Part shown: positions 40,767 through 56,351 of the stretch, piece after piece
How positions within the stretch are numbered: position 1 is the stretch's first letter
Layout of the letters: every line of letters begins with the position of its first letter
IMG/VR virus record: IMGVR_UViG_3300034082_003579
Origin: a virus
Taxonomy: Duplodnaviria; Heunggongvirae; Uroviricota; Caudoviricetes
Reading direction: 5' to 3' (one strand)
Length of the DNA: 64,000 nucleotides
Made by a program: the position numbers and the translations under genes
Notes under the pieces: model-generated
What the model saw: the letters and a program-made list of their open reading frames with translations, nothing else
Told to the model about the DNA's origin: nothing
Database searches by the model: none

Positions 40767-40800
40767 TGGTGGAGCTGGAGGGAATCGAACCCTCGTCTTG
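40767..40800 (-). other. tRNA 3'-half-like fragment (T-arm + acceptor + CCA), no 5' partner
   Basis: revcomp reads gagggttcgattccctc-cagctcc-a-cca; no complementary 5' acceptor strand found within 350 nt. Confidence 0.3.
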
Positions 40801-40833
40801 AACACTTTTCTCTTTACTTCATACAACAATTCT

Positions 40834-41046
40834 TTACAGTAAAAAAACCGCCGAACCCAGCAACACAATCAACACTGCAATAACTACAGCAAGTCGAATT
40901 GCATTTTTAAATTCTTTGTCGGGCATGGAAACTTCTTCCACTGCAGGTTTTTCCACCTGAGTTTTTACAGGTTCAGCATCAGCAGTTAGAGAAAGATACA
41001 CAAGATAAACTGCTGCTAATATTCCTAATATGATAAAGATCTTCAT
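40834..41046 (-). CDS. small membrane protein
   Basis: 70 aa, two hydrophobic helices. Confidence 0.3.
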   Translation of the reverse strand: MKIFIILGILAAVYLVYLSLTADAEPVKTQVEKPAVEEVSMPDKEFKNAIRLAVVIAVLIVLLGSAVFLL

Positions 41047-41050
41047 AAAA

Positions 41051-41293
41051 TTATTTATTCTCTACTTCCGGCGGACGTTCACGACGATCCAAGGTCCTGG
41101 GTTTGAGCAGATAATCACGACCAATATTGCCTGCTTCGATTTCTCTAATGGCAGTAACCACAAGATCGTTTTTGCACTGCACTGTAGGAAACCATCCGCG
41201 TTTGAGTTCACGTACACGTCTAGCAGCAATTAACACTAGATCATACTGGTTGCCTACAGCTAGAGCAGCTCGCTGACTGGTAATTCTGGCCAT
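41051..41293 (-). CDS. rpoZ: RNA polymerase omega subunit homolog
   Basis: MARITSQRAALAVGNQYDLVLIAARRVRELK aligns with E. coli RpoZ [31 protein letters not shown]; start set at the internal Met of the longer track ORF. Confidence 0.7.
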   Translation of the reverse strand: MARITSQRAALAVGNQYDLVLIAARRVRELKRGWFPTVQCKNDLVVTAIREIEAGNIGRDYLLKPRTLDRRERPPEVENK

Positions 41294-41352
41294 GATATTT
41301 CCTTGTTTATGAGTGGTTAATATATGTATTGTACAGCAGTTTTTGATGTGTG

Positions 41353-41592
41353 TCAACTCCAGGAGATGACAAATAAGGTACGGTCTTGGTCCCAACGAAA
41401 CGCTACACCAAGTTGGTACGTAGTACCGCTGTCGGCCCAGGCCCAGTGTGTGAAATGACCACCCACACGATTGTTTAGCCAATGCTCTACAGTTCTGATA
41501 CCCAACTCCCAATCTAACTGAGCCTGCTCAAAACTGGGCCAAGGTACAGAAGCTGAATATTCAAATGAGTGTCGGTCTATCAGCATCCGCAT
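41353..41592 (-). CDS. hypothetical protein (small-ORF family; C-terminus TLFVISWS)
   Basis: 79 aa. Confidence 0.4.
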   Translation of the reverse strand: MRMLIDRHSFEYSASVPWPSFEQAQLDWELGIRTVEHWLNNRVGGHFTHWAWADSGTTYQLGVAFRWDQDRTLFVISWS

Positions 41593-41616
41593 GTGTGTAT
41601 TTACACCGCATGCGGA

Positions 41617-42492
41617 TTATTCCTCCCAGGATGGATCAAATGTGACTGTTCCGTCAATGCCGATATTAAACCCTTTAGTAGTCCAATGATTAGCACGACT
41701 TTCGTATCCGTGATAACCACGTGGATTACACAGTACGGTAGTTTCACCAATTTGATACTTGAACTCGTCATGTGTATGACCATGTGTCCAAACTCGAATC
41801 TCAGGATGATCCAGCATAAGTTGGCTCAGATCACTAGAGTATCCACCATTCATCAACGTATCATGTTCGTACATGGGTTTGATACTGAGCTTGCTTGGTG
41901 CCATATGCGTAACCATAACAACCGGACGCGGAGTTTCGCGCTCTTTGTTGTTACGCAATACCTGCACGATATATTCCTTGGTACGCATGTGCTCTTCGGC
42001 TGTACGTTCTGGAGTTAGCTTGTGATAGATGTTGCCGTTTTTCATTGTAATGATACGGTAATCGTTCATGCCCGACTTGAGATGGAACATGGTCAAGCCG
42101 TCACCTTTATTGCAATCAGTCCACAGCGTAGCACCAACAAACAGTACTCCGTCGATTTCTACAGTTTCTTTTTCTAGTAGCTGTACATGATCCGGTAAAT
42201 TGTCTCGAATTTGATCGTATGTCTTGTCGAAGCGGCCACCGTAATGCTCGTGATTGCCCATGACCAAAATGGTTTTGCGATACTTGGCACATTCTTCTTC
42301 AAAGAACCTGTAGAAACGACCTTTCTTTCGACGCGGATCTTCAAATGCAAAATGTACAGTGTCAGGCCCGTAGGCACTTTTGTCCAAGTAACGAGCTTCA
42401 CAAGCATCACCTGAAATGATCAGGATATCGCCACCTGGTAACGTTAAATCTCCAAACTCTAAATGTAGGTCAGAACAAAGGTCTACACGCAT
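41617..42492 (-). CDS. calcineurin-like metallophosphoesterase
   Basis: DLHLEFG, GNHEHY, GHTH motifs. Confidence 0.75.
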   Translation of the reverse strand: MRVDLCSDLHLEFGDLTLPGGDILIISGDACEARYLDKSAYGPDTVHFAFEDPRRKKGRFYRFFEEECAKYRKTILVMGNHEHYGGRFDKTYDQIRDNLPDHVQLLEKETVEIDGVLFVGATLWTDCNKGDGLTMFHLKSGMNDYRIITMKNGNIYHKLTPERTAEEHMRTKEYIVQVLRNNKERETPRPVVMVTHMAPSKLSIKPMYEHDTLMNGGYSSDLSQLMLDHPEIRVWTHGHTHDEFKYQIGETTVLCNPRGYHGYESRANHWTTKGFNIGIDGTVTFDPSWEE

Positions 42493-42995
42493 TTTATTTC
42501 TCCAAAATACTCAGTAGAAACACTGAGTTTGTGCTTTCGCAGCATAAATACTTTCATAGTAGAAACCATGAGTTGTACTATATTTTACAAGGAAAGACAC
42601 ACAATGTCAATAGCAATATTACTCGAACGCCTGGCCGAAATGTTTCCAAAGCAAGATTATCACTCACGCATGGATCGTTATATCTCTTTAAGACAACCTA
42701 AATCTACCGCTGATGTAGAAAACCTACAAAAACAGTTTGAACAACAAAACCACCGAGGACTAATACTATGAAAGCTATTTTTACCGCAATCATCAACTAT
42801 ATGCAACGCCTAGAAGAATATCGCGTTGGACAAATTGTACGCACAAGAGGATGGGAATAAACTATGAAAATTTTAACTGCAATCTGGAATTTTTTTGAAG
42901 AACTTGCTGTAGCAAGAGCAGCTGGTATATTAGCAAGACAAGGTCGAAAGCAAGAAGCCGTCGACCTTATGAAAAATGCTAAAATTATCTAACAG

Positions 42996-43355
42996 TTAGG
43001 GTTGTTCGCCGTACTTGTTCTGACCGGGGTTGGGAGGAATGAATGCCAATGCAATTGCTATGGCAAATCCAACGTAGGGAATAAGATACAAAAATACCCA
43101 ACATCCGCTTTGACCAAAGTCACGAATTCGCTGTGCCGAAACAATCATGCCCATAACATATAATGCAATAAATGCCGGGATCATGATGACGAGACTAAGT
43201 CCGTAAGACAAGAATGCAAAAACGGCACCTACAATTGCTACTGCAATTGCCAATGCAACCAATGCCACGTTGGCCAATACATAGCTCTTTCGACCGCGAC
43301 GTCCTTCAAATTTAAACATGCTACCAAAAAAAGATTGTGCTTGAATGGTGTCCAC
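42996..43355 (-). CDS. DUF805-family inner-membrane protein
   Basis: GRRGRKSY motif followed by 3 TM helices. Confidence 0.45.
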   Translation of the reverse strand: MDTIQAQSFFGSMFKFEGRRGRKSYVLANVALVALAIAVAIVGAVFAFLSYGLSLVIMIPAFIALYVMGMIVSAQRIRDFGQSGCWVFLYLIPYVGFAIAIALAFIPPNPGQNKYGEQP

Positions 43356-43388
43356 TGTGGGATCTCCTGATTAAGTTAATGTATGTGT

Positions 43389-43417
43389 ATTGTACTGTGT
43401 GATGTATTACTGGTCAA
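43389..43417 (-). promoter_or_regulatory. sigma70-like promoter TTGACC-N17-TACAAT
   Basis: TTGACCagtaatacatcacacagTACAAT upstream of the DUF805 gene. Confidence 0.55.
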
Positions 43418-43432
43418 CTGCTTAGGTGATAT

Positions 43433-43507
43433 TGGTGCCCCCACCCGGAATCGAACTGGGATTTGATGATTACAAGTCAACTGTAATAGCCGTTATACTA
43501 TAGGGGC
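43433..43507 (-). tRNA. tRNA-Thr(TGT) (tentative)
   Basis: acceptor gcccctA/tgggggc, anticodon loop cuUGUaa, T-loop ttcgatt, CCA encoded; one mismatch each in the anticodon and T stems. Confidence 0.55.
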
Positions 43508-43517
43508 GTGGAACTGT

Positions 43518-43724
43518 TTACTCAACTGATTCGACAGCTACAACTTTTTCGATGTAGCCTTTTCGACTTGTTACAATACGAATACGATTGAGAATCTTTG
43601 CCTTGATCTTTTTCTTACCTTCTTTTTCTACCAAGGTAGTAAGTTGGGCCACTGTCAATCCACCTAGTCTGGTCTTGCCAGACTTGGTCTTGTTTGGATC
43701 TCTAACTTGATTACGTTGTGCCAT
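43518..43724 (-). CDS. small basic protein
   Basis: 68 aa, Lys/Arg-rich. Confidence 0.35.
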   Translation of the reverse strand: MAQRNQVRDPNKTKSGKTRLGGLTVAQLTTLVEKEGKKKIKAKILNRIRIVTSRKGYIEKVVAVESVE

Positions 43725-43742
43725 TTGATTCCTTTAAAATTT

Positions 43743-43832
43743 TGGCGGAGCGTCAGGGAGTCGAACCCTGTGAGCGTATTACTACACTCTACAGATTAGC
43801 AATCTGCTGCCTTACCATCCGGCCCACGCTCC
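43743..43832 (-). tRNA. tRNA-Ser(GCT)
   Basis: perfect acceptor ggagcgt/acgctcc, anticodon stem gcaga/tctgt, loop uuGCUaa, long variable arm, T-loop ttcgact. Confidence 0.75.
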
Positions 43833-44278
43833 AATTGTTCTACTTCAATACCGCACGACTTTAAAAACTGTACTCCGGCGTTGTCTCTATAGGCCGATCC
43901 AAAATACACACGACGGATACCGCTTTGATATATCAGTTTAGCGCAGTCGATACAAGGAGCGTGAGTGATAAACATAACACTGCCGTCTCCGGATTCACTG
44001 CTGCGAGCCAACTTCGAAATTGCGTTTGATTCTGCATGCAACACCTCTGGTTTGGTTTTTAGTACTATCCTATGTATAGAACCTTCAAATCCTGCATACG
44101 GTTCCACGCTTTCATCTTCACAGTTGTTATCCCAACCTGCTGGCATACCGTTGTAGCCAATGCTAATGATACGATCATCTTTGACCACAATGGCACCAAC
44201 ATGCAATCGCCTGGCGTGGCTGAGTTCTGCAAATGTCTCTGCAGTCCGCATGTAAGCTTCAAGTAAATTGGGTTTCAT
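43796..44278 (-). CDS. dCMP (deoxycytidylate) deaminase
   Basis: HAESNAI and PCIDCAKLI zinc-binding CDA motifs; 3' end overlaps tRNA-Ser(GCT). Confidence 0.8.
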   Translation of the reverse strand: MKPNLLEAYMRTAETFAELSHARRLHVGAIVVKDDRIISIGYNGMPAGWDNNCEDESVEPYAGFEGSIHRIVLKTKPEVLHAESNAISKLARSSESGDGSVMFITHAPCIDCAKLIYQSGIRRVYFGSAYRDNAGVQFLKSCGIEVEQLERGPDGKAADC

Positions 44279-44439
44279 CTGCCTCGACCTGCTGATTTTG
44301 CTGGTGGCTTTTTGACCGACGTGACTGCGCCAGTTTTCTTTGCTTTCTTTTCTACTGCAGGAGCACCATCAGGCTCAACGTGATGAATACCTTTTTTCTT
44401 TTCCAGTGCTGCCTTGAGTGTATCAGTTAGCTTGGACAT
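44275..44439 (-). CDS. small hypothetical protein
   Basis: start reassigned to MSKLTD with AAGGA RBS; Lys-rich. Confidence 0.35.
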   Translation of the reverse strand: MSKLTDTLKAALEKKKGIHHVEPDGAPAVEKKAKKTGAVTSVKKPPAKSAGRGR

Positions 44440-44633
44440 TATAACAGTTCCTTGAGATTCTTCAGTTGCAATGGACTCAACAACAAGCGATATTGAATCT
44501 GTTCGCGGCCATCTCGTCGGGCTCCGACCCATTCGGTGGAGAATTTTAATTCTGAATAACCTTGTGGGTGTAGCACTGATTTAATTTCTACTAGGGTTTT
44601 GAATCCGTCTGTTTCGCTGACAATAGTCTTCAT
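44439..44633 (-). CDS. hypothetical protein
   Basis: 64-aa ORF; its stop overlaps the downstream start. Confidence 0.35.
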   Translation of the reverse strand: MKTIVSETDGFKTLVEIKSVLHPQGYSELKFSTEWVGARRDGREQIQYRLLLSPLQLKNLKELL

Positions 44634-44659: not shown

Positions 44660-44732
44660 TGCAGGAACTGGATTCGAACCAGCGACCTCCAGGTTATGAG
44701 CCTAGCGGGATGACCAACTTCCCTACCCTGCG
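44660..44732 (-). tRNA. tRNA-fMet-like initiator (CAT) with C1:A72 mismatch
   Basis: cgcaggg...acceptor with C1-A72 unpaired, anticodon loop cuCAUaa, T-loop ttcgaat; CCA not encoded. Confidence 0.65.
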
Positions 44733-44835
44733 TCAAAACAAACTAAATGGAGCGGGAGGCGAGAGTTGAACTCGTCTATTTCTGCTTGGAAGGCAGACGT
44801 GTAACCACAAACACTTCACCCGCTTTGTTCTTAAA

Positions 44836-45803: not shown

Positions 45804-45888
45804 TGGTGGAGTATCCTGGGATCGAACCAGGCGTGCGCAAGCGCGGCGGATTTACAGTCCACTGCATCACCGTTGATGCTTCTACTCC
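45804..45888 (-). tRNA. tRNA-Tyr(GTA)
   Basis: acceptor ggagtag/ctactcc (wobble), anticodon stem gtgga/tccgc, loop cuGUAaa, long variable arm, T-loop ttcgatc. Confidence 0.75.
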
Positions 45889-45917: not shown

Positions 45918-47033
45918 TTGATGCTTATAAATAAATTTTTAATTGGTGACAAAATGTCTTTTATATGTAAAGCGCCGTGGACTAGTATTGCTTTTCAACC
46001 AACCGGTGTTGCTCCTTGTTGCATGTATCAGCTTGATGAACTAGAAGAATTCCGCAGCGACGGGAAACTTTTCCAAAAAATACGAGATTCATTTACTGAC
46101 GGAATTGTTCCCACTGGTTGCGTTCGATGTTCTAGTCGAGTAAATCAAGGAAATGAAGAATCGGCTTACTTCAAATCATTTAATCATTACACAACCAATT
46201 TTTCTACTCAGTCTATTCAAGAAATAAATCTAAGGTCAAATAATTTTTGTAATTTAGCATGCCGAAGTTGCGGCCCACATTTTAGTTCTAAGTGGGAAAA
46301 AGAATTTAAAGAAACAATCGTTATTACCAAAGACTCGGACGTATTTTCTAAGATTGATACTTTAGATCTATCTGTACTCAAAACTATAGTATTCGCCGGC
46401 GGCGAACCAACTATTGTACCTGAGCATGTCCAACTGTTGAAAAAACTAATATCTATTAATCATACTCGGGTTAATATTCGAGTAGCTACAAATTTACAAA
46501 CATTAACAAACAAGAATGTTAACTTAATTGACTTATGGAAGAATTTTCCAAATCTTATATTACATATAAGCATTGATGCAGTCGGTAATAATGCCGTTAA
46601 TATTAGATCAGGAACCAATTGGGAGACAATGGTATCTAACATAGAAAAAGTTAGTAAAAATAATATAGATTTTAATTTTGCTATTACTGTAAGTGCATTG
46701 AATATCTGGTTTCTAGAAAAAACGCTTGACTATCTAACAGAAACATTTCCAAAAAACAATAAATTATTACAATTACTTAATACACCAGACATATTAGATA
46801 TCTCGGTTATTCCGCCAAAATACCGAGACTCGATAAATCAAATGCTTAAATCATGCCAGCAAAAAAAATACGAAGTTAATCACATTAAACATTATTTTGA
46901 TAATAATGATACCTCTCAATTTTGGCAAAATTTTTTAACCTATAATCTATTTTTAGATGTAAATCGCCAAGAAAATTTTTGTCAATCTTTGCCGATATAT
47001 GATCAACTGATGATAGACTGGGTACATCTTTAA
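45918..47033 (+). CDS. radical SAM domain protein (paralog of 3962..5380)
   Basis: CNLACRSCGP CxxxCxxC motif; embedded in the tRNA island. Confidence 0.6.
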   Translation: MMLINKFLIGDKMSFICKAPWTSIAFQPTGVAPCCMYQLDELEEFRSDGKLFQKIRDSFTDGIVPTGCVRCSSRVNQGNEESAYFKSFNHYTTNFSTQSIQEINLRSNNFCNLACRSCGPHFSSKWEKEFKETIVITKDSDVFSKIDTLDLSVLKTIVFAGGEPTIVPEHVQLLKKLISINHTRVNIRVATNLQTLTNKNVNLIDLWKNFPNLILHISIDAVGNNAVNIRSGTNWETMVSNIEKVSKNNIDFNFAITVSALNIWFLEKTLDYLTETFPKNNKLLQLLNTPDILDISVIPPKYRDSINQMLKSCQQKKYEVNHIKHYFDNNDTSQFWQNFLTYNLFLDVNRQENFCQSLPIYDQLMIDWVHL

Positions 47034-47062: not shown

Positions 47063-47136
47063 TGGCGTATCCCCGAGGACTCGACCCTTGACTAGCGGTT
47101 TTGGAGACTGATATGCTGCCATTACATTAGAGACAC
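47063..47136 (-). tRNA. degenerate tRNA-Trp-like (CCA anticodon loop), possible pseudogene
   Basis: anticodon region cagtctccaaaaccgc is homologous to the Trp gene at 54559 but its 5' stem is mutated (3/5 pairs); T-loop gtcgagt. Confidence 0.35.
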
Positions 47137-47142: not shown

Positions 47143-47217
47143 TGGCGACTCGTGGGAGGATCGAACTCCCGTGACCGGATAGACAATCCAGCGTAATAAC
47201 CATTATACGAACGAGCC
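47143..47217 (-). tRNA. tRNA-Asp(GTC) (tentative)
   Basis: acceptor ggctcgt/acgagtc, anticodon stem ctgga/tccgg, loop uuGUCua (U37 unusual), T arm gggag-ttcgatc-ctccc. Confidence 0.6.
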
Positions 47218-47225
47218 ATAAACTT

Positions 47226-47302
47226 TGGGGTGACTACTGGGTAACGATCCCAGTCTACAACTTTCACAGAGTTGGGTGCGGAACCTTTACACTATAGCCA
47301 CC
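47226..47302 (-). tRNA. tRNA-His(GTG)
   Basis: extra G-1 opposite C73, anticodon stem caact/agttg, loop cuGUGaa; unusual T-loop atcgtta. Confidence 0.7.
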
Positions 47303-47311
47303 ACGGAAACT

Positions 47312-47386
47312 TGGTACTCGGTAGGGGAGTTGAACCCCTCTTGCAGGAATGAAAATCCTGAGTCCTAACCGATAGACGAACCGAGT
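47312..47386 (-). tRNA. tRNA-Glu(TTC)
   Basis: perfect acceptor actcggt/accgagt, Glu-like D-arm ttcgtcta, anticodon stem cagga/tcctg, loop uuUUCau, T-loop ttcaact. Confidence 0.65.
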
Positions 47387-48443: not shown

Positions 48444-48896
48444 ATGGCAAACAAAGACTATAAAGAAATGAGCGCAAGCGAAAAGAAAAAAGAAGATTGG
48501 ATGAATTCAAAATGGCGTCCAATGATGGGTTGGATGTACATGGCAGTGTGTATGGCTGACTTTGTGCTGTTTCCAGTTCTCTGGAGCCTGGTACAAGCAG
48601 CACACGGCGGCAGTGTACAAACACAATGGAGTCCAATTACCTTGCAAGGCGCAGGATTATTCCACATGGCCATGGGTGCTATTTTGGGTATCGCAGCATT
48701 CGGACGCACACAAGAAAAAATAGCCGGTGCCAACAATGGCGGAATGGCTGCAGCACCTGCGGTCAGTTCGTTCTCTGCACAACCAACAAACAGTTTTAGC
48801 GCATCTGCACCTACCATAGCACCTGTGAGTTTCAGCAGCGGCGGAATTGCAGCAGGCAAAGCTCGTCCAGCTGAATTTGATCATCCGGCAATTTAA
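48444..48896 (+). CDS. membrane protein, putative holin
   Basis: 150 aa with 2-3 TM helices, immediately upstream of the endolysin. Confidence 0.4.
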   Translation: MANKDYKEMSASEKKKEDWMNSKWRPMMGWMYMAVCMADFVLFPVLWSLVQAAHGGSVQTQWSPITLQGAGLFHMAMGAILGIAAFGRTQEKIAGANNGGMAAAPAVSSFSAQPTNSFSASAPTIAPVSFSSGGIAAGKARPAEFDHPAI

Positions 48897-49137
48897 TAAG
48901 GAAAACAAAATGAAATTAATATACTCAACTATTTTAGCACTGAGCCTTGTTGCTGGTGCTCACGCACAAGACACCAAACCTGCCGAAAACAAAGGCGAAA
49001 AGAAAGAAGTCTGTACTGATGTCAAAGACAAGGCCGGTGCTGTGGTCAAGAACAAAGACGGCACGGTCAAACAGTCTTGCAAAACTATCACTGTGCGCAA
49101 GAAATACGAAGGTACTGCAGTGCCTGACAAAAAATAA
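48847..49137 (+). CDS. secreted small Lys-rich protein
   Basis: signal peptide MKLIYSTILALSLVAGAHA. Confidence 0.35.
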   Translation: MQQAKLVQLNLIIRQFNKENKMKLIYSTILALSLVAGAHAQDTKPAENKGEKKEVCTDVKDKAGAVVKNKDGTVKQSCKTITVRKKYEGTAVPDKK

Positions 49138-49150
49138 GGAGTACTAATAC

Positions 49151-50005
49151 ATGGCTTTTAATTTTAATTTTACTCAACAACAACTGGCACAACTGATTCC
49201 GGGTAATCCTTATGTGGCACAATGGTATTCTGCACTGAGCATGATCTTGCCTGACTATGGTATTGATACTGTGCCACGTGTGGCAGCGTTTGTTGCACAA
49301 TGTGCGCACGAAAGTGCCAACTTCAAGTTCCTGAAAGAAAACTTGAACTACAAGGCCGAAAGTCTAATGCGTGTCTGGCCCAGTCGGTTCCCTTCAATGG
49401 ATGTTGCTCGTCAATATGCCATGCAGCCAGAGAAGATCGCCAACAAGGTCTATGGTGGACGCATGGGCAATGGTACAGAAGAAACTGGTGACGGATGGCG
49501 TTATGCTGGCAAAGGTCTTATTCAGTTGACCGGTAAAGACAACTACACACGCTTTGCTGAAAGTATTGACACACCCGTGGAAGAAATTCCTGAATACCTA
49601 CAGACATTCGAAGGTGCTGTGCAATCAGCTTGCTGGTTTTGGGAAGTCAACAACCTCAATCAATGGGCTGATGCCGGCGATATCCTGACCTTAACCAAAC
49701 GCATCAACGGTGGTGTTATCGGTCTTGAAGATCGCAAAAAACACTATGCACATGCTTTACATGTGTTAGGTGGCGATTCAGCACATCATGTTGCAGAAAG
49801 TTCTGCTGCTGTCAACACAGCTCAAGTACTGCGTCGCGGTAGTCGTGGTGATACTGTGGCTGCTATGCAGATCAGACTAGGCCTATCCGGTGACGGCGAT
49901 TTTGGTCCAGCAACAGAACGTGCCTTAATGGGATGGCAACGTGAAAACGGATTAGAACCCGACGGCGTCGCTGGTCCAGCAACACTAGCTAAGTTGTTGG
50001 CATAA
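49151..50005 (+). CDS. endolysin: GH19 glycoside hydrolase with C-terminal peptidoglycan-binding domain
   Basis: CAHESANF...GKGLIQLTGKDNY GH19 catalytic blocks; C-terminal PG_binding_1-like repeat ...GDGDFGPATERAL. Confidence 0.75.
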   Translation: MAFNFNFTQQQLAQLIPGNPYVAQWYSALSMILPDYGIDTVPRVAAFVAQCAHESANFKFLKENLNYKAESLMRVWPSRFPSMDVARQYAMQPEKIANKVYGGRMGNGTEETGDGWRYAGKGLIQLTGKDNYTRFAESIDTPVEEIPEYLQTFEGAVQSACWFWEVNNLNQWADAGDILTLTKRINGGVIGLEDRKKHYAHALHVLGGDSAHHVAESSAAVNTAQVLRRGSRGDTVAAMQIRLGLSGDGDFGPATERALMGWQRENGLEPDGVAGPATLAKLLA

Positions 50006-50009
50006 TATC

Positions 50010-50450
50010 ATGTGGCAAATCATGTGGATACTGAATTTAATACCAGCTTGGCTATGGCACATACTACTGGGAGTTTCCCTGGTGACCATAGCTGCCACAT
50101 ATTTTCTACGCATGATTCCATTCTTTGGCACAAACGCAATTCAGTTGCGTTTTGCGGCTACCTTGATATTGATTTTTACTGTCTGGATGGAAGGCGGCAT
50201 AGCTAACGAAGCTAAATGGCAACAACGTATTCAGGACTTGGAAGCCCGAGTGGCTGAAGCCGAAAAAGCAGCTGCCGAAACCAATACCAAAATTGAAACA
50301 GTTTATGTTGATCGAGTCGAAGTGGTCAAAGAAATACAGTATGTGGTTCGCAAAGATATTGAACGTGCTGCCACTGAACTGGATGCCAACTGTCGTGTTT
50401 CGCCTCGCGCCATTGAACTATTAAATCAAGCCACAGGTGCTAAGAAATGA
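50010..50450 (+). CDS. i-spanin-like protein
   Basis: N-terminal TM, then coiled-coil QQRIQDLEARVAEAEKAAAE; follows the endolysin. Confidence 0.5.
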   Translation: MWQIMWILNLIPAWLWHILLGVSLVTIAATYFLRMIPFFGTNAIQLRFAATLILIFTVWMEGGIANEAKWQQRIQDLEARVAEAEKAAAETNTKIETVYVDRVEVVKEIQYVVRKDIERAATELDANCRVSPRAIELLNQATGAKK

Positions 50451-50704
50451 AATTTGTCGCCATTGCTGTTCTACTAGCGTTGACTGGCTGTGTTGCTCCA
50501 GTCAAACGAGAATTTCCTGCCATACCGCCCAGCTTGGAAAAGCCCTGCAGTCCTTTACTGGAAGTACCAAAAACTACCAAGCTCAGTGAAGTGTTAAAAG
50601 TAGTTACTGAAAACTACGCACTTTATGGTGCTTGTCAGATCAAAAATGAAACTTGGTTGGATTGGTATCAGAAACAAAAGAAAATATTTGACTCTGTAAA
50701 ATAA
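50447..50704 (+). CDS. o-spanin-like lipoprotein
   Basis: lipobox LTGC; start overlaps the i-spanin stop. Confidence 0.5.
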   Translation: MKFVAIAVLLALTGCVAPVKREFPAIPPSLEKPCSPLLEVPKTTKLSEVLKVVTENYALYGACQIKNETWLDWYQKQKKIFDSVK

Positions 50705-50901: not shown

Positions 50902-51342
50902 ATGAAAAAATTATTACTTGCATTACTATTTGTACCTGCGATTGCTGTATCTCAAACACCGAAAGAACCTGTGGGCGTCACATACGATGCTCAAATTATC
51001 CGCGTCAGCGATGGCGACACCATTGTGATTGCTGCACCATTCTTGCCTGCGCCCTTGAAACCCGAGTTAGCTGTGCGCATCTACGGAGTTGACACTCCGG
51101 AAAAAGGACACAGAGCACAATGTCCACAAGAAGCTGCACGTGCCGAACGAGCGTCGGCCTGGACCAATCAGCTGGTTGCCAGTAGTGCCAAGCGTCAAGT
51201 AATCTTATACAAGTGGGACAAGTTTGGCGGGCGTGTTATCGGTGACATTATCATCAACGGACAAAGTGTACGACGCGGACTTATTGCCAACGGACTGGCA
51301 CGTGAATATTACGGCGACGCAAAACAAAGCTGGTGTAACTAA
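50902..51342 (+). CDS. SNase-like (thermonuclease) secreted nuclease
   Basis: signal peptide; RVSDGDTIV...VRIYGVDTPEK = SNase Ca-binding/catalytic blocks. Confidence 0.65.
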   Translation: MKKLLLALLFVPAIAVSQTPKEPVGVTYDAQIIRVSDGDTIVIAAPFLPAPLKPELAVRIYGVDTPEKGHRAQCPQEAARAERASAWTNQLVASSAKRQVILYKWDKFGGRVIGDIIINGQSVRRGLIANGLAREYYGDAKQSWCN

Positions 51343-52387: not shown

Positions 52388-52393
52388 TAACTG

Positions 52394-52470: not shown

Positions 52471-52605
52471 GTTGCTTGACTTGCCGACGCATGGCCTTGT
52501 TGGGCTTGCGATGACTGCCTGCCCCTGTCTTTTTAAGTACCAAACAAACGAAGGGGTTACGTTTGGGTACGGTCAGTTTAGACTTCATGTCTAGCTCCTT
52601 AAAAA

Positions 52606-52920
52606 TTATGTTACTTTTTGTTTGTTTTTAACAGCACTAAACAACATTGACGCACGTTTGAGATCAAAGTTTTTGTGGCGGTACATGTAATCTTTTTTAC
52701 GCTCCGCTACTACTAGAGCTTGAGCTAACATGTACTTCTCGTTAAAATCCATGGACTTCATCATGGCGTCTTGCATGTCCATGACGTCTAGTGCATACTC
52801 CAGCCACTTCTCTGTTGCTTTAATGCTGTCGTAAGTGCTAAAGCCTGCGGACTTGTTGCTGGCGTTATACTTGTTAATAAAGTTGCGAGCTTGCATAATA
52901 AACTCCTTATTGATTAACAA
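52606..52920 (-). CDS. hypothetical protein
   Basis: 104-aa ORF inside the tRNA island. Confidence 0.4.
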   Translation of the reverse strand: MLINKEFIMQARNFINKYNASNKSAGFSTYDSIKATEKWLEYALDVMDMQDAMMKSMDFNEKYMLAQALVVAERKKDYMYRHKNFDLKRASMLFSAVKNKQKVT

Positions 52921-52984
52921 GTAAGTATTATAGCAAACAGCGAATTAACAGTCAAGTTGACTGTGGTATTTCTACAACACTATG

Positions 52985-53058
52985 TGGCAGGCCCACAAGG
53001 GTTCGAACCTTGACTGACAGAATCAAAATCTGTAGTGCTACCATTACACTATGGACCA
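52985..53058 (-). tRNA. tRNA-Gln(TTG)
   Basis: perfect anticodon stem acaga/tctgt, loop uuUUGau, D-arm gtgt..gcac, T arm caagg-ttcgaac-ccttg; 1-72 unpaired (U.U). Confidence 0.65.
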
Positions 53059-53064
53059 ACTGAT

Positions 53065-53141
53065 TGGCTCCCCGGGCTGGGCTTGAACCAGCGACATCGG
53101 CATTAACAGTGCCGCGCAACTACCAACTGTGCTACCGAGGA
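53065..53141 (-). tRNA. tRNA-Asn(GTT)
   Basis: acceptor tcctcgg/ccgggga, perfect anticodon stem cggca/tgccg, loop cuGUUaa, T arm gctgg-ttcaagc-ccagc. Confidence 0.7.
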
Positions 53142-53162
53142 ATAAAACTTTACTATACTGCT

Positions 53163-53191
53163 ATTGTAACTGAGACTGTATTACTGGTCAA
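53163..53191 (-). promoter_or_regulatory. sigma70-like promoter TTGACC-N17-TACAAT
   Basis: TTGACCagtaatacagtctcagtTACAAT upstream of tRNA-Asn/Gln. Confidence 0.55.
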
Positions 53192-53192
53192 C

Positions 53193-53666
53193 CTACTGGT
53201 AGTACTGATTGACATGCTGTTGTATCTTATCGTGGCTGATTTTGTAGTGATGATGCCCAGGACTGTGTTGTCCACGTCCGGAAGCATCAAACCAATTATC
53301 GTACGGAATTCCAAATCGATCAAAGTTGACATCAACTGAATGATACGCTCCTACAGTTATCGCATACACCGGCTTGACAGTGACCTGCGTTAACACTTGC
53401 CTGACTGCAACAGCACCAGCACTAAAGCCGTAAAGTTCATATGGTTGATTCACTTGCTGAACAAACTCAACTGCTGCTGCAGATTCGCGCCAGTTGTATA
53501 CTTGAGAACAAGCTGACTTGCGTTCGGCATATTGATCAAATGCAGCTTGATCAAACACACCACCGGCACCACGAAATCCAATGACATATAGATTACAGTC
53601 TGTGTCGGGTACAGCTGGTGCAGCCGCAGAGAAAAACCATAAGAACACAGTGAGAAAAATATCCAT
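53193..53666 (-). CDS. secreted alpha/beta-hydrolase-like protein
   Basis: signal peptide; GFSAG (GxSxG) nucleophile elbow. Confidence 0.45.
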   Translation of the reverse strand: MDIFLTVFLWFFSAAAPAVPDTDCNLYVIGFRGAGGVFDQAAFDQYAERKSACSQVYNWRESAAAVEFVQQVNQPYELYGFSAGAVAVRQVLTQVTVKPVYAITVGAYHSVDVNFDRFGIPYDNWFDASGRGQHSPGHHHYKISHDKIQQHVNQYYQ

Positions 53667-53679
53667 GTGTTATTTAACT

Positions 53680-53755
53680 TGGCCGGTCCTGAGAGACTCG
53701 AACTCCCAACCTCCAGTTTCGAAGACTGGCACTCTATCCATTGAGTTAAGGACCG
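53680..53755 (-). tRNA. tRNA-Arg(TCG)
   Basis: perfect acceptor cggtcct/aggaccg, D-arm actc..gagt, perfect anticodon stem ccagt/actgg, loop cuUCGaa, T-loop ttcgagt. Confidence 0.7.
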
Positions 53756-53760
53756 TGTTG

Positions 53761-53855
53761 TGGTAGTAGCGTAGAGATTCGAACTCTATCGTTGCAGCCC
53801 ATCTGACCGCTCTCCCGGGTTTATAAAACCCAGCCGCATACCAATGCTCGCTACC
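53761..53855 (-). tRNA. noncanonical 95-nt tRNA-like gene (anticodon loop uuUAUaa; identity unclear)
   Basis: good acceptor ggtagcg/cgctact and T arm tagag-ttcgaat-ctcta, but D-stem gcat/atgc has a 4-nt loop and the variable region is 26 nt; best anticodon stem tgggt/acccg gives UAU. Confidence 0.4.
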
Positions 53856-53866
53856 ATTAAAACTTT

Positions 53867-53944
53867 TGGAAGTAAGGGTGGGATTCGAACCCACGGTTTT
53901 TGCGCTTTGCAGGCGCATGCATTGGACCACTCTGCCACCTTACT
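53867..53944 (-). tRNA. tRNA-Cys(GCA)
   Basis: perfect acceptor agtaagg/ccttact with U73 discriminator, perfect anticodon stem tgcgc/gcgca, loop cuGCAaa, T arm gtggg-ttcgaat-cccac. Confidence 0.75.
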
Positions 53945-53949
53945 ATTGT

Positions 53950-54025
53950 TGGTGCTGATGGTGAGGATTGAACTCACGACCTCATCCTTACCAAGGATGC
54001 GCGACTACCACTGTGCTACACCAGC
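53950..54025 (-). tRNA. tRNA-Thr(GGT)
   Basis: acceptor gctggtg/catcagc, perfect anticodon stem catcc/ggatg, loop uuGGUaa, T arm gtgag-ttcaatc-ctcac. Confidence 0.7.
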
Positions 54026-54031
54026 GAACCT

Positions 54032-54517
54032 TTATGCTGCTTTTGCCTGCATGTCTAACACTTCTTTTAAACGGTCGGCAGCATAACTTGCAGCAAAAGC
54101 TTGTGGCTTAACAAAGGGTACAACATTACACATACCTTTGATGTAGCCAATGGCTTCGTTTACCACGCATGAACTACCGTGCAGTTCACTTGGGTTGATG
54201 TCCAAGTGAACTTCCACAATACGATCTTCCAACACATCCTGCAGCTTTAAATACAACTCTGCAATCTTGTACACTTCTGTCATTAGTCGCATGCGTGGTT
54301 TGTCTTTCTTGCTATCCCAATCACGTTCACGTTGTACTTCACCGAAAATCTTACAACCGTTGTTGCCATTGATGTGAACAACGATGGCCAAGGTGTAATC
54401 GGCAAACCATGCTCCATCCACGGAGAATCGAGAACTGTCACCCCCGATGTAAATTCTAGTACCGGGACCTTGAGCTTCGATGAACTGCCGTACTTCATCA
54501 ATGTCGATCTTACGCAT
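54032..54517 (-). CDS. hypothetical protein
   Basis: 161-aa ORF between tRNA-Thr and tRNA-Trp. Confidence 0.4.
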   Translation of the reverse strand: MRKIDIDEVRQFIEAQGPGTRIYIGGDSSRFSVDGAWFADYTLAIVVHINGNNGCKIFGEVQRERDWDSKKDKPRMRLMTEVYKIAELYLKLQDVLEDRIVEVHLDINPSELHGSSCVVNEAIGYIKGMCNVVPFVKPQAFAASYAADRLKEVLDMQAKAA

Positions 54518-54558
54518 TATAACCTCTTGTTTGTTAGCGTACTTTTAACTACAAAAAC

Positions 54559-54634
<76 letters not shown>

Positions 54635-54641
54635 ATAAACT

Positions 54642-54717
54642 TGGTGCGGGGTACAGGGTTCGAACCTGCGACCTGAACGTTGGCAACGTTCCGCTCTACC
54701 AGCTGAGCTAACCACGC
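54642..54717 (-). tRNA. tRNA-Gly(GCC)
   Basis: D-arm gctc-agctggta-gagc, perfect anticodon stem gaacg/cgttc, loop uuGCCaa, T-loop ttcgaac. Confidence 0.75.
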
Positions 54718-54735
54718 ATTATAACTATTTAACCT

Positions 54736-54810
54736 TGGTGGACCGTGGGAGAATCGAACTCCCGCTTCATGCTTGCAAAGCACATGTGCTACCACTATCA
54801 CTAACAGCCC
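54736..54810 (-). tRNA. tRNA-Ala(TGC)
   Basis: G3:U70 wobble identity pair present, anticodon loop uuUGCaa, T arm gggag-ttcgatt-ctccc. Confidence 0.75.
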
Positions 54811-54819
54811 ATTAAAACT

Positions 54820-54895
54820 TGGTCTCCATACGAGGATTTGAACCTCGACCACATGGTCCCAAACCATGCACGCTACCAGATTACGCCATACGGAG
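54820..54895 (-). tRNA. tRNA-Pro(TGG)
   Basis: acceptor ctccgta/tatggag, perfect anticodon stem catgg/ccatg, loop uuUGGga, T arm cgagg-ttcaaat-cctcg. Confidence 0.75.
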
Positions 54896-54904
54896 ATAAA
54901 AACT

Positions 54905-54993
54905 TGGTGGACGAAGGTAGGACTCGAACCTACTACAAAGCTACGAAGGCAGCATAACTCATGCTACGAGCCGTTTCCTAACGGCGTTCGCCC
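54905..54993 (-). tRNA. noncanonical ~89-nt class II-like tRNA-like gene (anticodon unresolved; possible pseudogene)
   Basis: acceptor gggcgaa/ttcgtcc + A + CCA and T arm gtagg-ttcgagt-cctac are intact, but the only 5-bp stem in anticodon position has loop ugaguua (G33); internal direct repeat tcgtagc x2 and no variable-arm hairpin. Confidence 0.35.
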
Positions 54994-55002
54994 ATTAAAA
55001 CT

Positions 55003-55077
55003 TGGTACTGCATACGGGTTACGATCCCGTCTGGTCACCTTGAAAGGGTGATGACCTCACCAGAAGTCGAATGCAGC
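55003..55077 (-). tRNA. tRNA-Glu(TTC), second copy
   Basis: acceptor gctgcat/atgcagt, D-stem gact/ggtc, perfect anticodon stem tcacc/ggtga, loop cuUUCaa (E. coli Glu-like); unusual T-loop atcgtaa. Confidence 0.6.
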
Positions 55078-55083
55078 ATTAAC

Positions 55084-55159
55084 TGGCACCGTAGACGGGA
55101 ATCAAACCCGCTGCGATCTGATAGACAGTCAGATATCACCATCAGGTGGACTCTACGGT
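55084..55159 (-). tRNA. tRNA-like with GTC anticodon loop and noncanonical D-arm (possible Asp paralog/pseudogene)
   Basis: perfect acceptor accgtag/ctacggt, anticodon stem tctga/tcaga, loop cuGUCua; D-stem cacc/ggtg shifted with a 4-nt loop; T-loop tttgatt lacks C56. Confidence 0.4.
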
Positions 55160-55165
55160 ATAACT

Positions 55166-55241
55166 TGGTACCTAGTACTGGGCTTGAACCAGTGACCTAT
55201 GCGTTATCAACACATTGCTCTACCAACTGAGCTAACTAGGC
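55166..55241 (-). tRNA. tRNA-Ile(GAT)
   Basis: D-arm gctc-agttggta-gagc, anticodon stem atgtg/cgcat, loop uuGAUaa, T arm actgg-ttcaagc-ccagt. Confidence 0.7.
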
Positions 55242-55246
55242 ATTAA

Positions 55247-55327
55247 CAATTTATTGAGCACACTACCCGATTAAACCTTTGCAATGCCATTGCTGATTCG
55301 GGTTCGTATAATGTACTCAATAAATTG
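55247..55327. repeat. long inverted-repeat hairpin element copy 5 (caatttattgagcacac / gtactcaataaattg)
   Basis: left arm and loop start (..gagcacactaccc..) homologous to copy 2; 6 nt from the 5' end of tRNA-Ile(GAT). Confidence 0.55.
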
Positions 55328-55689
55328 TAGTGGTTGTCCCACTACTGTCCATCTTACTCTTGCTGTTACCGCCAGCAATTTCACATCCGGAACCCCGCCC
55401 ATTCGAGCATGTTTAGCGTGGGCTCAAGGTTCTCGTTACCTATTCCACGTACTGCTGAAAACAAAAAACCCTAGGGTTTAGCCTAGGGTCTGTGTAGTTT
55501 TGGATATTAGCTATGTAGCTTAACTATCCCTATCTCCACGGACCCGACTTGTTCCCTCTGGTGTGCGATCACTTGTAATATTCATGCCCGCAAACGCACA
55601 CGCTGACCAATAGGCGACTGTGCCTAGTTTGGGCTGTTGTGAGGATATTTGCGAGAGATGGTTATGTGTGTTCATTTTCATATTAAAGT

Positions 55690-55718
55690 AATTGTACTGC
55701 AAAGACCAGTAATGGTCA
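55690..55718 (-). promoter_or_regulatory. tandem promoter 1 TTGACC-N17-TACAAT
   Basis: TTGACCattactggtctttgcagTACAAT; first of two ~80-nt tandem copies upstream of the tRNA cluster. Confidence 0.55.
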
Positions 55719-55772
55719 ACCTGTATTTCTATTTAGTCCTAAGAAATCACTTGTTTAATTTCTTAAAACATA

Positions 55773-55801
55773 ATTGTACTGCAAAGACAGTTTCCTGTCT
55801 A
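55773..55801 (-). promoter_or_regulatory. tandem promoter 2 TAGACA-N17-TACAAT
   Basis: TAGACAggaaactgtctttgcagTACAAT; second tandem copy. Confidence 0.5.
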
Positions 55802-55814
55802 CCGGTATTTCTAT

Positions 55815-56093
55815 TTAGTCTTTCCTAAAAATGTTGCTCCATTGATGCAGCTTTTCTATTTTTCTTTCGGCAGCAGCTTCCAACCCATCAGCCGAAATGA
55901 CATCTTCATCAATTAACAACTTCATCATTGCCATGACATCGCCTAACTCTTGTTCCAACATTTCTCTATGCGGAACGTTAGTCTTGTAATGTTGTGAGTC
56001 TATGCCAAACCTGCGGCACTTGCTGACTTCGACAATGACCTCTGCACATTCTTCCTGCAGGATGTCTAATATTTCTTGTACTCTTTCTTTCAT
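55815..56093 (-). CDS. MazG-like nucleotide pyrophosphohydrolase
   Basis: EQELGDVMAMMKLL matches the MazG EExxE/ELGD motif. Confidence 0.55.
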   Translation of the reverse strand: MKERVQEILDILQEECAEVIVEVSKCRRFGIDSQHYKTNVPHREMLEQELGDVMAMMKLLIDEDVISADGLEAAAERKIEKLHQWSNIFRKD

Positions 56094-56103
56094 TTTAACC
56101 TTA

Positions 56104-56187
56104 TGGTACGGGATACCAGAGTCGAACTGGTACGCATTGCGCGGCGAGTTTTAAGCCCGCTGGGTCTACCGATTCCCCCAATCCCGC
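56104..56187 (-). tRNA. tRNA-Leu(TAA)
   Basis: class II, 84 nt; acceptor gcgggat/atcccgt, 3-bp D-stem with long loop, anticodon stem gcggg/ctcgc, loop cuUAAaa, variable hairpin cgcgcaatgcg, T-loop ttcgact. Confidence 0.7.
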
Positions 56188-56195
56188 ATTATTAT

Positions 56196-56270
56196 TGGTC
56201 CGGCGTGCAGGAATCGAACCCACATTCAGCGGGTAGAAGCCGCTTGTATTATCCATTATACTAACGCCAG
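56196..56270 (-). tRNA. tRNA-Arg(TCT)
   Basis: D-stem gtat/atac, perfect anticodon stem agcgg/ccgct, loop cuUCUac, T-loop ttcgatt. Confidence 0.7.
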
Positions 56271-56275
56271 ATTAT

Positions 56276-56351
56276 TGGTGCCCCCGGAGGGATTTGAACC
56301 CCCGACCAAGCGATTATGAGTCGCCTGCTCTCACCACTGAGCTACAGGGGC
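56276..56351 (-). tRNA. tRNA-Ile2(CAT), lysidine type
   Basis: gcccctgtagctcagtggtgagagcaggcgactCATaatcgcttggtc... is near-identical to E. coli ileX through the D- and anticodon arms. Confidence 0.75.

Follow-up and report, generated by a model that had tools for sequence, protein, structure and literature searches.

A tRNA island with a two-piece tmRNA in a T4-like freshwater phage, and a family of long-armed phage tRNAs with a UAU anticodon

The subject of this analysis is a 64,000-nucleotide (nt) stretch of DNA from an uncultured tailed phage (IMG/VR record IMGVR_UViG_3300034082_003579), here called the window, in which positions 40479-56351 form a transfer RNA (tRNA) island. The island holds 32 tRNA-like genes, all on the minus strand, with a two-piece (permuted) transfer-messenger RNA (tmRNA) at its end. 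It is a lineage trait and not peculiar to this genome, and as a feature it is of a known kind, ordinary for such phages. We consider it likely that the island is a polycistronic translation-support module, which would chiefly supply decoders for codons ending in A or U and secondarily make the phage less dependent on the host tRNA pool. One of its genes, a 95-nt tRNA(UAU) with a long extra arm, belongs to a widespread and seemingly undescribed family; this family is a more valuable outcome than the island itself and deserves separate follow-up.

The tRNA island and its relatives

At default settings, ARAGORN called 28 tRNA genes in the interval 43433-56351, every one of them on the minus strand, together with the permuted tmRNA, and the CAT anticodons were those that had been parsed by hand in a preliminary description of this stretch. 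Twenty-five of these tRNAs scored above the gathering score of 29 of the Rfam tRNA covariance model (37.8-72.3 bits), and a more permissive Rfam pass over the island recovered His, Leu-UAA and Tyr in addition. A second ARAGORN pass was run at an 80% threshold. The default ARAGORN calls cover 19 amino acids, with Tyr absent. The preliminary description had claimed about 30 minus-strand tRNA genes serving all 20 amino acids, and ARAGORN and Rfam agree on this once the sub-threshold Tyr(GUA) gene at 45804-45888 is accepted. The minimum-free-energy fold of this gene is a class II cloverleaf, and the gene shares 81% identity with the tRNA-Tyr(GUA) of the related locus L015. A second gene that is sub-threshold but credible, Ser(UGA) at 51755-51847, is 71% identical to the Ser(UGA) gene of locus L028. 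With 28 high-confidence genes and two atypical ones (Trp-like and Asp-like), these make up the total of 32. The genes of ordinary type are listed here, and the CAU, UAU and atypical genes where they are discussed.

43433..43507, minus strand: tRNA-Thr(UGU); ARAGORN, Rfam
43743..43832, minus strand: tRNA-Ser(GCU), class II, G73; ARAGORN, Rfam
44748..44823, minus strand: tRNA-Gly(UCC); ARAGORN, Rfam
45804..45888, minus strand: tRNA-Tyr(GUA), class II, A73; Rfam 33.5 bits, ARAGORN at 80% threshold
47143-47217, minus strand: tRNA-Asp(GUC), last-transcribed of the Glu-His-Asp cluster 47143..47386; ARAGORN, Rfam
47226-47301, minus strand: tRNA-His(GUG), with G-1 at 47302, middle of the same cluster; ARAGORN, permissive Rfam, sequence
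47312-47386, minus strand: tRNA-Glu(UUC), first-transcribed of the same cluster; ARAGORN, Rfam
50706-50782, minus strand: tRNA-Val(UAC); ARAGORN, Rfam
50788-50871, minus strand: tRNA-Leu(UAG); ARAGORN, Rfam
51591-51666, minus strand: tRNA-Phe(GAA); ARAGORN, Rfam
51675-51748, minus strand: tRNA-Val(GAC); ARAGORN, Rfam
51755-51847, minus strand: tRNA-Ser(UGA), class II, G73; Rfam Sec-model match at 33 bits, manual parse
52394-52470, minus strand: tRNA-Lys(UUU); ARAGORN, Rfam
52985-53058, minus strand: tRNA-Gln(UUG); ARAGORN, Rfam
53065-53141, minus strand: tRNA-Asn(GUU); ARAGORN, Rfam
53680..53755, minus strand: tRNA-Arg(UCG); ARAGORN, Rfam
53867-53944, minus strand: tRNA-Cys(GCA), U73; ARAGORN, Rfam
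53950-54025, minus strand: tRNA-Thr(GGU); ARAGORN, Rfam
54559..54895, minus strand: tRNA-Trp(CCA), Gly(GCC), Ala(UGC, G3:U70) and Pro(UGG); ARAGORN, Rfam
55003-55077, minus strand: tRNA-Glu(UUC); ARAGORN, Rfam
55166-55241, minus strand: tRNA-Ile(GAU); ARAGORN, Rfam
56104-56187, minus strand: tRNA-Leu(UAA); ARAGORN, permissive Rfam
56196-56270, minus strand: tRNA-Arg(UCU); ARAGORN, Rfam

The genes lie in three minus-strand sub-clusters (43433-44823, 45804-47386 and 50706-56351) that are split by plus-strand modules, the lysis module being the largest of these. Spacers within clusters are 5-18 nt, and this tight same-strand arrangement is that of the T4-like and DLP6-type phage tRNA islands. The 3′ CCA is encoded in 31 of the 32 genes. 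Direct reading of the sequence also upheld the earlier view that the identity elements are bacterial, since the encoded G-1 of the His gene faces C73, the Ala gene has G3:U70 and the Cys gene has U73.

Three genes have a CAU anticodon (CAT in the DNA), at the positions that had been given for them.

44660..44732, minus strand: initiator-like tRNA(CAU); ARAGORN (as 44658-44732), Rfam 56.4 bits
51981..52056, minus strand: elongator tRNA-Met(CAU); ARAGORN, Rfam 63.5 bits
56276..56351, minus strand: tRNA-Ile2 (gene anticodon CAU, ileX-like); Rfam 72.3 bits

When the initiator-like and elongator genes were compared with E. coli genomes by BLAST, some matches had low scores and others were to the bodies of tRNA-Thr and tRNA-Ile. 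Because BLAST was uninformative here, the classification rests on structural features and on the recurrence of the classes in relatives, where all three are maintained across dozens of divergent loci; on these grounds the earlier assignment as initiator-like, elongator Met and ileX-like Ile2 stands. The initiator-like gene has C1×A72, G2:C71 and C3:G70, which provide the 1:72 mismatch and the formylation determinants. Its anticodon stem has G30:C40 and G31:C39 but A29:U41, and so two of the three G:C pairs; this G:C run is equally or more degenerate in the initiator-like genes of relatives. Its G11:C24 pair has the purine:pyrimidine orientation of initiators, with bases unlike the A11:U24 of E. 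coli. The 3′ end reads GCA-U-CAAAG, that is, U73 in place of A73-CCA, and this is the sole gene of the 32 in which CCA is not encoded. In its anticodon stem and 3′ end the gene departs from the canonical bacterial initiator. The initiator-like genes of relatives have odd 1:72 combinations too (A:A, U:U, G:A). The gene at 51981-52056, with the anticodon loop UUCAUAC, can be assigned as elongator Met by elimination and by A5:U68 and A73, and its loop class recurs in relatives beside the other two.

Along its whole length, the Ile2 gene shares 88-89.5% identity with E. coli genes that carry a tRNA-Ile annotation in RefSeq. Compared with E. coli ileX and ileY, whose C34 becomes k2C34 after TilS action, the D and anticodon arms are nearly identical, whereas the acceptor and T stems differ. 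The acceptor stem GCCCCUG/CGGGGGC provides C4:G69 and C5:G68, which are reportedly determinants for E. coli TilS. No TilS (PF01171) was found among the window open reading frames (ORFs) of at least 70 amino acids (aa), so the modification would have to be supplied by the host, and lysidinylation by host TilS is presumed. The preliminary description had taken the Ile2 gene to imply dependence on host TilS or a phage equivalent. That is only part of the picture, because the putative second AUA decoder at 53761-53855 has a UAU anticodon and would need no lysidine, so that AUA decoding would not be solely TilS-dependent.

The tmRNA lies at the other end of the island.

40479..40877, minus strand: two-piece (permuted) tmRNA; ARAGORN tmRNA* at 40479-40859, Rfam at 40507-40877

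It matched the full Rfam model RF04321 (tmRNA_permuted) at 119.9 bits, against a gathering score of 47, and RF01850 (beta_tmRNA) at 101.2 bits, against 84. The acceptor piece comes first, with its CCA end at about 40767, and is followed by the coding piece with the tag peptide ANEDSFVAERLAA, which has a hydrophobic end with AA before the stop. In the tRNA-like domain GGGGCUG pairs with CAGCUCC, giving the G3:U70 alanine identity pair. Position 40767, previously taken as the start of the tRNAs, is thus the CCA end of the tmRNA acceptor piece and not a tRNA; the 'Tyr with intron' that ARAGORN called at 40767-40867 appeared at the 80% threshold only. Homologous tmRNA pieces were found in six related loci (L027, L028, L031, L100, L145 and L158). 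The scans of the window ORFs gave no SmpB, and this partner protein is presumed to come from the host. Two-piece tmRNAs are known from Melnitz-like and other aquatic phages (PMC9004378).

The source is predicted to be a T4-like myophage of an uncultured freshwater lineage, with Melnitz, HTVC008M and DLP6 as distant cultured relatives. A megablast search of the island against 50,697 phage records gave tRNA-sized matches only. Relatives were instead reached through the DUF458 protein encoded in the island, which as a query returned 120 IMG/VR relatives; 80 loci were retrieved, and 36 loci were examined for tRNA content. Most of these loci carry 20-32 tRNAs around the DUF458 gene, and in several the default ARAGORN calls alone serve all 20 amino acids. 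The loci differ from one another in which genes they hold and in what order. Among cultured phages, Stenotrophomonas phage vB_SmaS-DLP_6 (DLP6; KU682439.2) and other T4-like clusters (KVP40-like Vibrio phages, Cronobacter S13, LPCS28) likewise have tens of same-strand tRNAs with small ORFs. The window shares with DLP6 the DUF458 protein, a metallophosphoesterase, chaperonins (GroEL with GroES in the window; GroES in the part of DLP6 that was examined) and a tRNA-Ile-TAT of 92-95 nt. It is this common make-up, in the IMG/VR relatives and in DLP6, that marks the island as a lineage trait of a known kind. Unlike the DLP6-type islands, that of the window has an embedded two-piece tmRNA, rpoZ and a lysis cassette; it has Arg-UCG in place of Arg-ACG and no suppressor tRNA, and the DNA similarity is limited to the tRNAs. 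Amber-suppressor-like tRNA(CUA) genes, some of them long-armed, occur in four related loci (L016, L022, L045 and L046) and in DLP6 (KU682439.2 113763-113834), and none is present in the window.

The second line of relatedness leads to Methylophilales phage Melnitz and Pelagibacter phage HTVC008M, to which a 696-aa cyclase-like protein of the window shows 49% and 36% identity, respectively. That lineage also has curli genes (CsgG, CsgF) and a two-piece tmRNA, as the window does (PMC9004378). Melnitz has 4 tRNAs and a glutamine riboswitch at the tmRNA (PMC9004378), whereas the window has about 32 tRNAs, and the permissive Rfam pass over the island gave no match to such a riboswitch.

Codon usage and the role of the island

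The nearest bacterial homologues of the phage porin, at 59-61% amino acid identity, are in Sheuella, Alcaligenaceae and Burkholderiaceae with 50-51% GC. A freshwater bacterium of the order Burkholderiales is the probable host. The genomes of these homologues served as a proxy host lineage, and about 12,000 host codons were compared. The GC content is 43% in the phage and about 50% in the proxy. ATA is the codon most enriched in the phage (15.3 vs 2.6 per 1000, 5.1-fold), followed by AGA, CTA, GTA, TTA and CGA (2.1-2.4-fold). When the anticodon supply was set against these differences, as the preliminary description had proposed, every phage-enriched codon was found to be served by an island tRNA, either a U34 tRNA or the Ile2 tRNA, and AUA had two dedicated genes. 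No AUA codons occur in GroEL, the porin or the endolysin.

AUA is isoleucine in the phage proteome. In alignments with relatives, 60% of ATA codons stand opposite Ile, 16% opposite Val and 14% opposite Leu, a pattern that resembles those of ATT and ATC, and in alignments with PDB entries ATA codons fall on conserved Ile residues of DegT-family transaminases. A reassignment of AUA had been considered because the tRNA(UAU) is class-II-shaped; it was rejected on the ATT/ATC-like behaviour and the conserved Ile positions in the DegT homologues.

The repeated sigma70-like promoters that had been described behind the island were confirmed, with 48 sites where shuffles gave 32.1 ± 4.8. They recur on the minus strand, which holds 17 of the 18 sites that match at least 10 of 12 positions. 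The strongest are directly upstream of clusters (56411, 55351, 53191, 48299 and 45066).

How the island is expressed, processed and charged, and why it is selected, we infer as follows. Host RNA polymerase would transcribe the clusters from the repeated promoters into polycistronic precursors that include the small ORFs, and these would be cut by host RNase P and 3′ processing enzymes, with CCA already encoded in nearly all genes. The products would be charged by host aminoacyl-tRNA synthetases through their bacterial identity elements. With its 27 distinct anticodons, the U34-rich minimal set could in principle read all 61 sense codons. The main effect would be to supply decoders for A- and U-ending codons, which are far more frequent in the 43% GC phage than in the host lineage, and compensation of codon usage is favoured as the main function because the enriched codons each have a phage tRNA and AUA has two. 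AUA would be the clearest case, served by both the TilS-needing ileX-like tRNA and the TilS-independent tRNA(UAU). As a secondary effect, late translation may become less tied to the host tRNA pool, while the tmRNA would rescue stalled ribosomes. The complete set together with the tmRNA, the RNA polymerase omega subunit and GroEL/GroES suggests added autonomy from the host translation apparatus. The island is then one more near-autonomous decoding set with a tmRNA, and one with a clear codon-usage rationale, AUA being 5-fold over the proxy host lineage.

Three points weigh against compensation as the chief role. The host is a proxy taken from a single gene that may have been acquired horizontally, and it is represented by only some 12,000 codons. 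The full 20-amino-acid set exceeds what compensation calls for, as the codons for Trp, Met, Phe, Asp and others are not phage-enriched, so that their tRNAs suggest autonomy or counter-defence as a further or different role. Lastly, a degenerate Trp-like copy, a His remnant and a tRNA-like element (all described below) argue that part of the island is decaying and not under selection.

The second of these points could be taken further, with the set mainly replacing host tRNAs that are degraded or cleaved by anticodon nucleases or other tRNA-targeting defences, and the codon match being secondary. The inclusion of both initiator and elongator Met genes among tRNAs for all 20 amino acids goes beyond any codon-bias need, complete sets recur in relatives, and the tmRNA, GroEL/GroES and omega subunit alongside would fit a broad take-over of gene expression. 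Several phage tRNAs also have anticodon loops unlike those of hosts, for example U37 in both Asp genes. We nevertheless regard replacement as the main role as rather unlikely: the U34 decoders of A-ending codons and the two AUA decoders closely track the codon differences between phage and host, a match that compensation predicts and that replacement alone does not require. It is highly improbable that the island is evolutionary baggage, that is, slowly decaying tRNA genes from past hosts, moved by homing endonucleases and with little present function; the pseudogene-like copies (the Trp-like gene, the fusion of a His 5′ half with a Tyr 3′ end, and the element 54905-54993), an HNH endonuclease within the island and the shuffling among relatives would fit this, but thirty genes keep an intact cloverleaf, identity elements and encoded CCA, stems covary among relatives instead of decaying, with compensatory changes as a sign of purifying selection, and the same functional classes, including the three CAU types, persist across dozens of divergent loci.

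The 95-nt tRNA(UAU) and its family

53761..53855, minus strand: 95-nt class-II-shaped tRNA(UAU); ARAGORN

This tRNA has a 7-bp acceptor stem and a 5-bp T stem, G1:U72, A73, CCA, a very small D arm and an extra arm with the loop CAGAUGG. The first 80 related loci yielded another 15 distinct homologues with ARAGORN, and BLAST found one in the cultured phage DLP6 (KU682439.2 104738-104829, 92 nt, annotated as tRNA-Ile-TAT). A motif scan of IMG/VR matched at least 120 loci, where about 10 would be expected by chance, with 103 new distinct sequences among the matches listed. Members were also found in Sinorhizobium phage Phosso and in Synechococcus phages S-SRM01 and S-SKS1, which with DLP6 makes four cultured phages. 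The hosts of the phages that carry them include Cyanobacteria and Alpha-, Beta- and Gammaproteobacteria. The family has over 110 distinct sequences in viral contigs; members are 90-100 nt long, and the anticodon is UAU in all 113 that were analysed. In the literature searched, the coverage of which was incomplete, no description of a long-armed phage tRNA-Ile(UAU) family was found, only nematode and allo-tRNA analogues.

The structure is supported by covariation. It is seen in the stems of the acceptor, T and extra arms when the motif-independent sequences are aligned, with compensatory changes in 14 of the 15 predicted pairs. The invariant positions of this alignment are G18 G19, U33-UAU-A37, A73-CCA and the AGAU of the extra-arm loop; ACCA was imposed on the motif-scan matches, and the invariance of A73 is taken from the 15 motif-independent sequences and the DLP6 copy. 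A 23-sequence seed laid out as a complete cloverleaf has pairing in 96.9% of cells, against 36-49% in slid controls, and compensatory changes at 22 of its 24 pairs. The extra arm consists of a 3-5-bp stem and a 7-nt loop, YAGAUNR (CAGAUUA, CAGAUAA, CAGAUGG), and this loop, apart from an A in place of U33, is that of the anticodon arm in tRNA-Ile(GAU).

Several comparisons link the rest of the molecule to tRNA-Ile(GAU) as well. Removal of the 17-nt UAU arm in silico led ARAGORN to call tRNA-Ile(GAU) in 54 of 113 members, while removal of the arm from genuine Leu, Ser and Tyr tRNAs gave a call of any kind in 25 of 317. For seven of the members with a canonical D arm, the best match of the arm-deleted molecule among 826 tRNAs was a tRNA-Ile(GAU), and tRNA-Ile(GAU) genes were the best-scoring non-members under the family covariance model. 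The extra arm of one member aligned by BLAST with the anticodon arm of the tRNA-Ile(GAU) of Cronobacter phage LPCS28. U12:A23 is present in 22 of the 23 seed sequences. The predominant 3′ end of the family is U72-A73-CCA, which is also that of E. coli tRNA-Ile1. In the extra arm, the pair equivalent to 29:41 is C:G in 22 of the 23 seeds, and the real anticodon arm has U34 and G29:C41. The copy in the window, which is among the most diverged members, has G:U at the 29:41-equivalent position.

For comparison, the isoleucine identity set of E. coli comprises A73, U12:A23, C29:G41, G or lysidine at 34, A35, U36, A37 and A38, together with C4:G69 and D-loop positions (PMC9976931), and for the E. 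coli isoleucyl-tRNA synthetase (IleRS) a UAU variant is a 360-fold poorer substrate than the lysidine form (PMC3575796). We tentatively propose, as a possibility that we put at somewhat below even, that the family descends from a tRNA-Ile(GAU) through the gain of a second anticodon arm (UAU) immediately upstream of the first. The older arm, which would have exchanged U33 for A and kept a stem of only 3-5 bp, would now stand at the position of the variable arm. The ribosome would read AUA through the UAU arm, and the GAU loop would serve as an identity surrogate for host IleRS, which otherwise rejects U34; the invariant AGAU loop and the frequent C:G at the 29:41-equivalent position are the candidate surrogate elements. 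Such a tRNA could decode AUA independently of TilS in any host.

The other reading of this shape is that 53761-53855 is a class II tRNA charged by the leucyl- (LeuRS) or seryl-tRNA synthetase (SerRS), so that Leu or Ser would be inserted at AUA. The extra arm is long, A73 (suited to LeuRS) is invariant, and neither of these synthetases checks the anticodon. There are also precedents, in the Leu-charged nematode nev-tRNAIle(UAU) (PMC3333845) and in the bacterial allo-tRNAs, among whose predominant anticodons is UAU (PMC5389517), and the share of ATA codons aligned to Leu (14%) is above that of ATT and ATC (7%). We find Leu or Ser insertion quite unlikely, because AUA stands at conserved Ile positions, the body is Ile-like with tRNA-Ile(GAU) as the best non-members and with U12:A23 and the UACCA end kept, and the extra arm is built like an anticodon arm and not like a class II variable arm, as the arm-removal calls and their controls indicate; the 7/5 structure, moreover, is not the 8/4 or 9/3 of allo-tRNAs. 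Two plain classifications of the gene were rejected. As a class II tRNA for Leu, Ser or Tyr it has the arm, but the anticodon is UAU in all members; as an allo-tRNA or tRNA-Sec it fails on the 7-bp acceptor and 5-bp T stems supported by covariation, and the Rfam Sec model matches at only 25 bits.

A functional parallel to the proposed tRNA-Ile(GAU) derivative is the tRNA-Ile(UAU) of Mycoplasma mobile, which likewise reads AUA without TilS through an unmodified UAU anticodon (PMC3575796). M. mobile has a changed IleRS (Arg865) for charging, whereas the phage tRNA must use an unaltered host IleRS and has the GAU-loop hairpin. The nematode nev-tRNAIle(UAU) and bacterial allo-tRNA(UAU) also combine a long extra arm with UAU (PMC3333845, PMC5389517). 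They are tRNA-Leu-derived or tRNA-Sec-like (8/4 or 9/3) and charged with Leu or Ser; in contrast, the phage family has a 7/5 structure, a tRNA-Ile-like body and an extra arm akin to the Ile anticodon arm, and AUA is still Ile. Across islands, tRNA(UAU) and Ile2 show no anti-correlation: both are present in 11, tRNA(UAU) only in 4, Ile2 only in 13 and neither in 7.

If the proposal is true, it would be a natural case in which decoding and identity are carried by separate elements of a single tRNA. It would account for lysidine-free AUA decoding by phages across unrelated hosts and be directly useful in engineering orthogonal or recoded tRNAs. The surrogate role of the GAU loop is open to experiment, as the cultured phages DLP6, Phosso, S-SRM01 and S-SKS1 have members.

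Degenerate copies and interleaved genes

Four elements of the island are degenerate or atypical tRNAs.

47063..47136, minus strand: degenerate tRNA-Trp(CCA)-like copy; Rfam 37.8 bits
47400..47445, minus strand: truncated chimeric tRNA remnant; sequence comparison
54905..54993, minus strand: tRNA-like element with an aberrant core; minimum-free-energy fold, ARAGORN only at 80% threshold
55084-55159, minus strand: atypical Asp(GUC)-like gene; permissive Rfam and ARAGORN passes

The Trp-like copy has a broken anticodon stem and GUC in the T loop, and is 82% identical to the Trp genes of relatives. The Asp-like gene has a 4-nt D loop without GG and the T loop UUUGAUU, so that both partners of the D/T-loop contact are gone; it is kept nevertheless in two other viral contigs, L116 (91%) and L151 (83%). 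Position 37 is U in this gene as in the other Asp gene of the window. In the remnant, a tRNA-His 5′ half with a 37-nt stretch that matches the tRNA-His of locus L001 at 100% is joined to a 3′ end, cccaggatactccacca, that it has in common with the tRNA-Tyr of the window, a chimera that reads as evidence for recombination between tRNA genes. The element at 54905-54993 lies in the 107 nt that separate the Pro and Glu genes. Its acceptor stem is good, its T arm is canonical and ACCA is present, but it has a 6-bp D-like hairpin with a 4-nt loop and is without a proper anticodon loop; it had no Rfam match, and its T-arm part alone matches other loci.

The interleaved protein genes named in the preliminary description (rpoZ, dCMP deaminase, HNH, the lysis cassette and a nuclease) all had profile matches. 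They are given here with the remaining genes of the island and the promoter at its upstream end.

41051..41293, minus strand: rpoZ-like RNA polymerase omega subunit, 80 aa, MARITSQ...; PF01192 7.6e-11
41617..42492, minus strand: metallophosphoesterase; phrog_1649 1e-51, PF00149
43796..44278, minus strand: dCMP deaminase (ComEB-like); PF00383 1e-22, TIGR02571 1e-23, the latter below its cutoff
45918..47033, plus strand: Twitch-domain radical SAM protein; NF033640 6.5e-71, PF04055
47455..47730, plus strand: HNH endonuclease; PF01844, PF14279, motifs in translation
48444-48896, plus strand: holin, first gene of the lysis cassette 48444..50704; PHROGs, Pfam
49151-50005, plus strand: endolysin, same cassette; PHROGs, Pfam
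50010-50450, plus strand: i-spanin, same cassette; PHROGs, Pfam
50447-50704, plus strand: o-spanin lipoprotein, same cassette; PHROGs, Pfam, lipobox in translation
50902..51342, plus strand: secreted staphylococcal-nuclease-like protein (SNase); PF00565 7.6e-10, phrog_452
54032..54517, minus strand: DUF458/PF04308 RNase H-like protein; PF04308 1e-14
55815..56093, minus strand: MazG-like NTP pyrophosphohydrolase; phrog_4856 6e-20, PF03819
56383..56411, minus strand: sigma70-like promoter TTGACC-17-TATAAT, just upstream of the Ile2-Arg-Leu cluster

The promoter is one of nine minus-strand sites that match at 11 of 12 positions. The rpoZ-like gene has a sigma70-like promoter of its own at 41356-41328, and homologues were found in 21 related loci. 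DLP6 likewise has a metallophosphoesterase at the edge of its tRNA island. The 3′ coding end of the dCMP deaminase gene overlaps tRNA-Ser(GCU) at 43743-43832 by 37 nt on the same strand. The DUF458 protein is 62% identical to a DLP6 protein encoded inside the tRNA island of that phage and could be a tRNA-processing or tRNA-repair factor. Across T4-like phages, among them DLP6, KVP40-like Vibrio phages, Cronobacter S13 and roseophages, proteins of this family are encoded within tRNA islands.

On either side of the island, in window positions 1-40407 and 56401-64000, auxiliary genes of host-like type are dense. They encode the porin, an OmpA-domain protein, the curli proteins CsgG and CsgF, a PstS-like protein, a TctA transporter and a FecR-domain protein. 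They also include a MoxR-like AAA and VWA pair, Band 7, GT4, a DegT aminotransferase and a carbamoyltransferase, and further two twitch radical SAM proteins, ThyX, a heme oxygenase, a rubrerythrin and GroEL/GroES.

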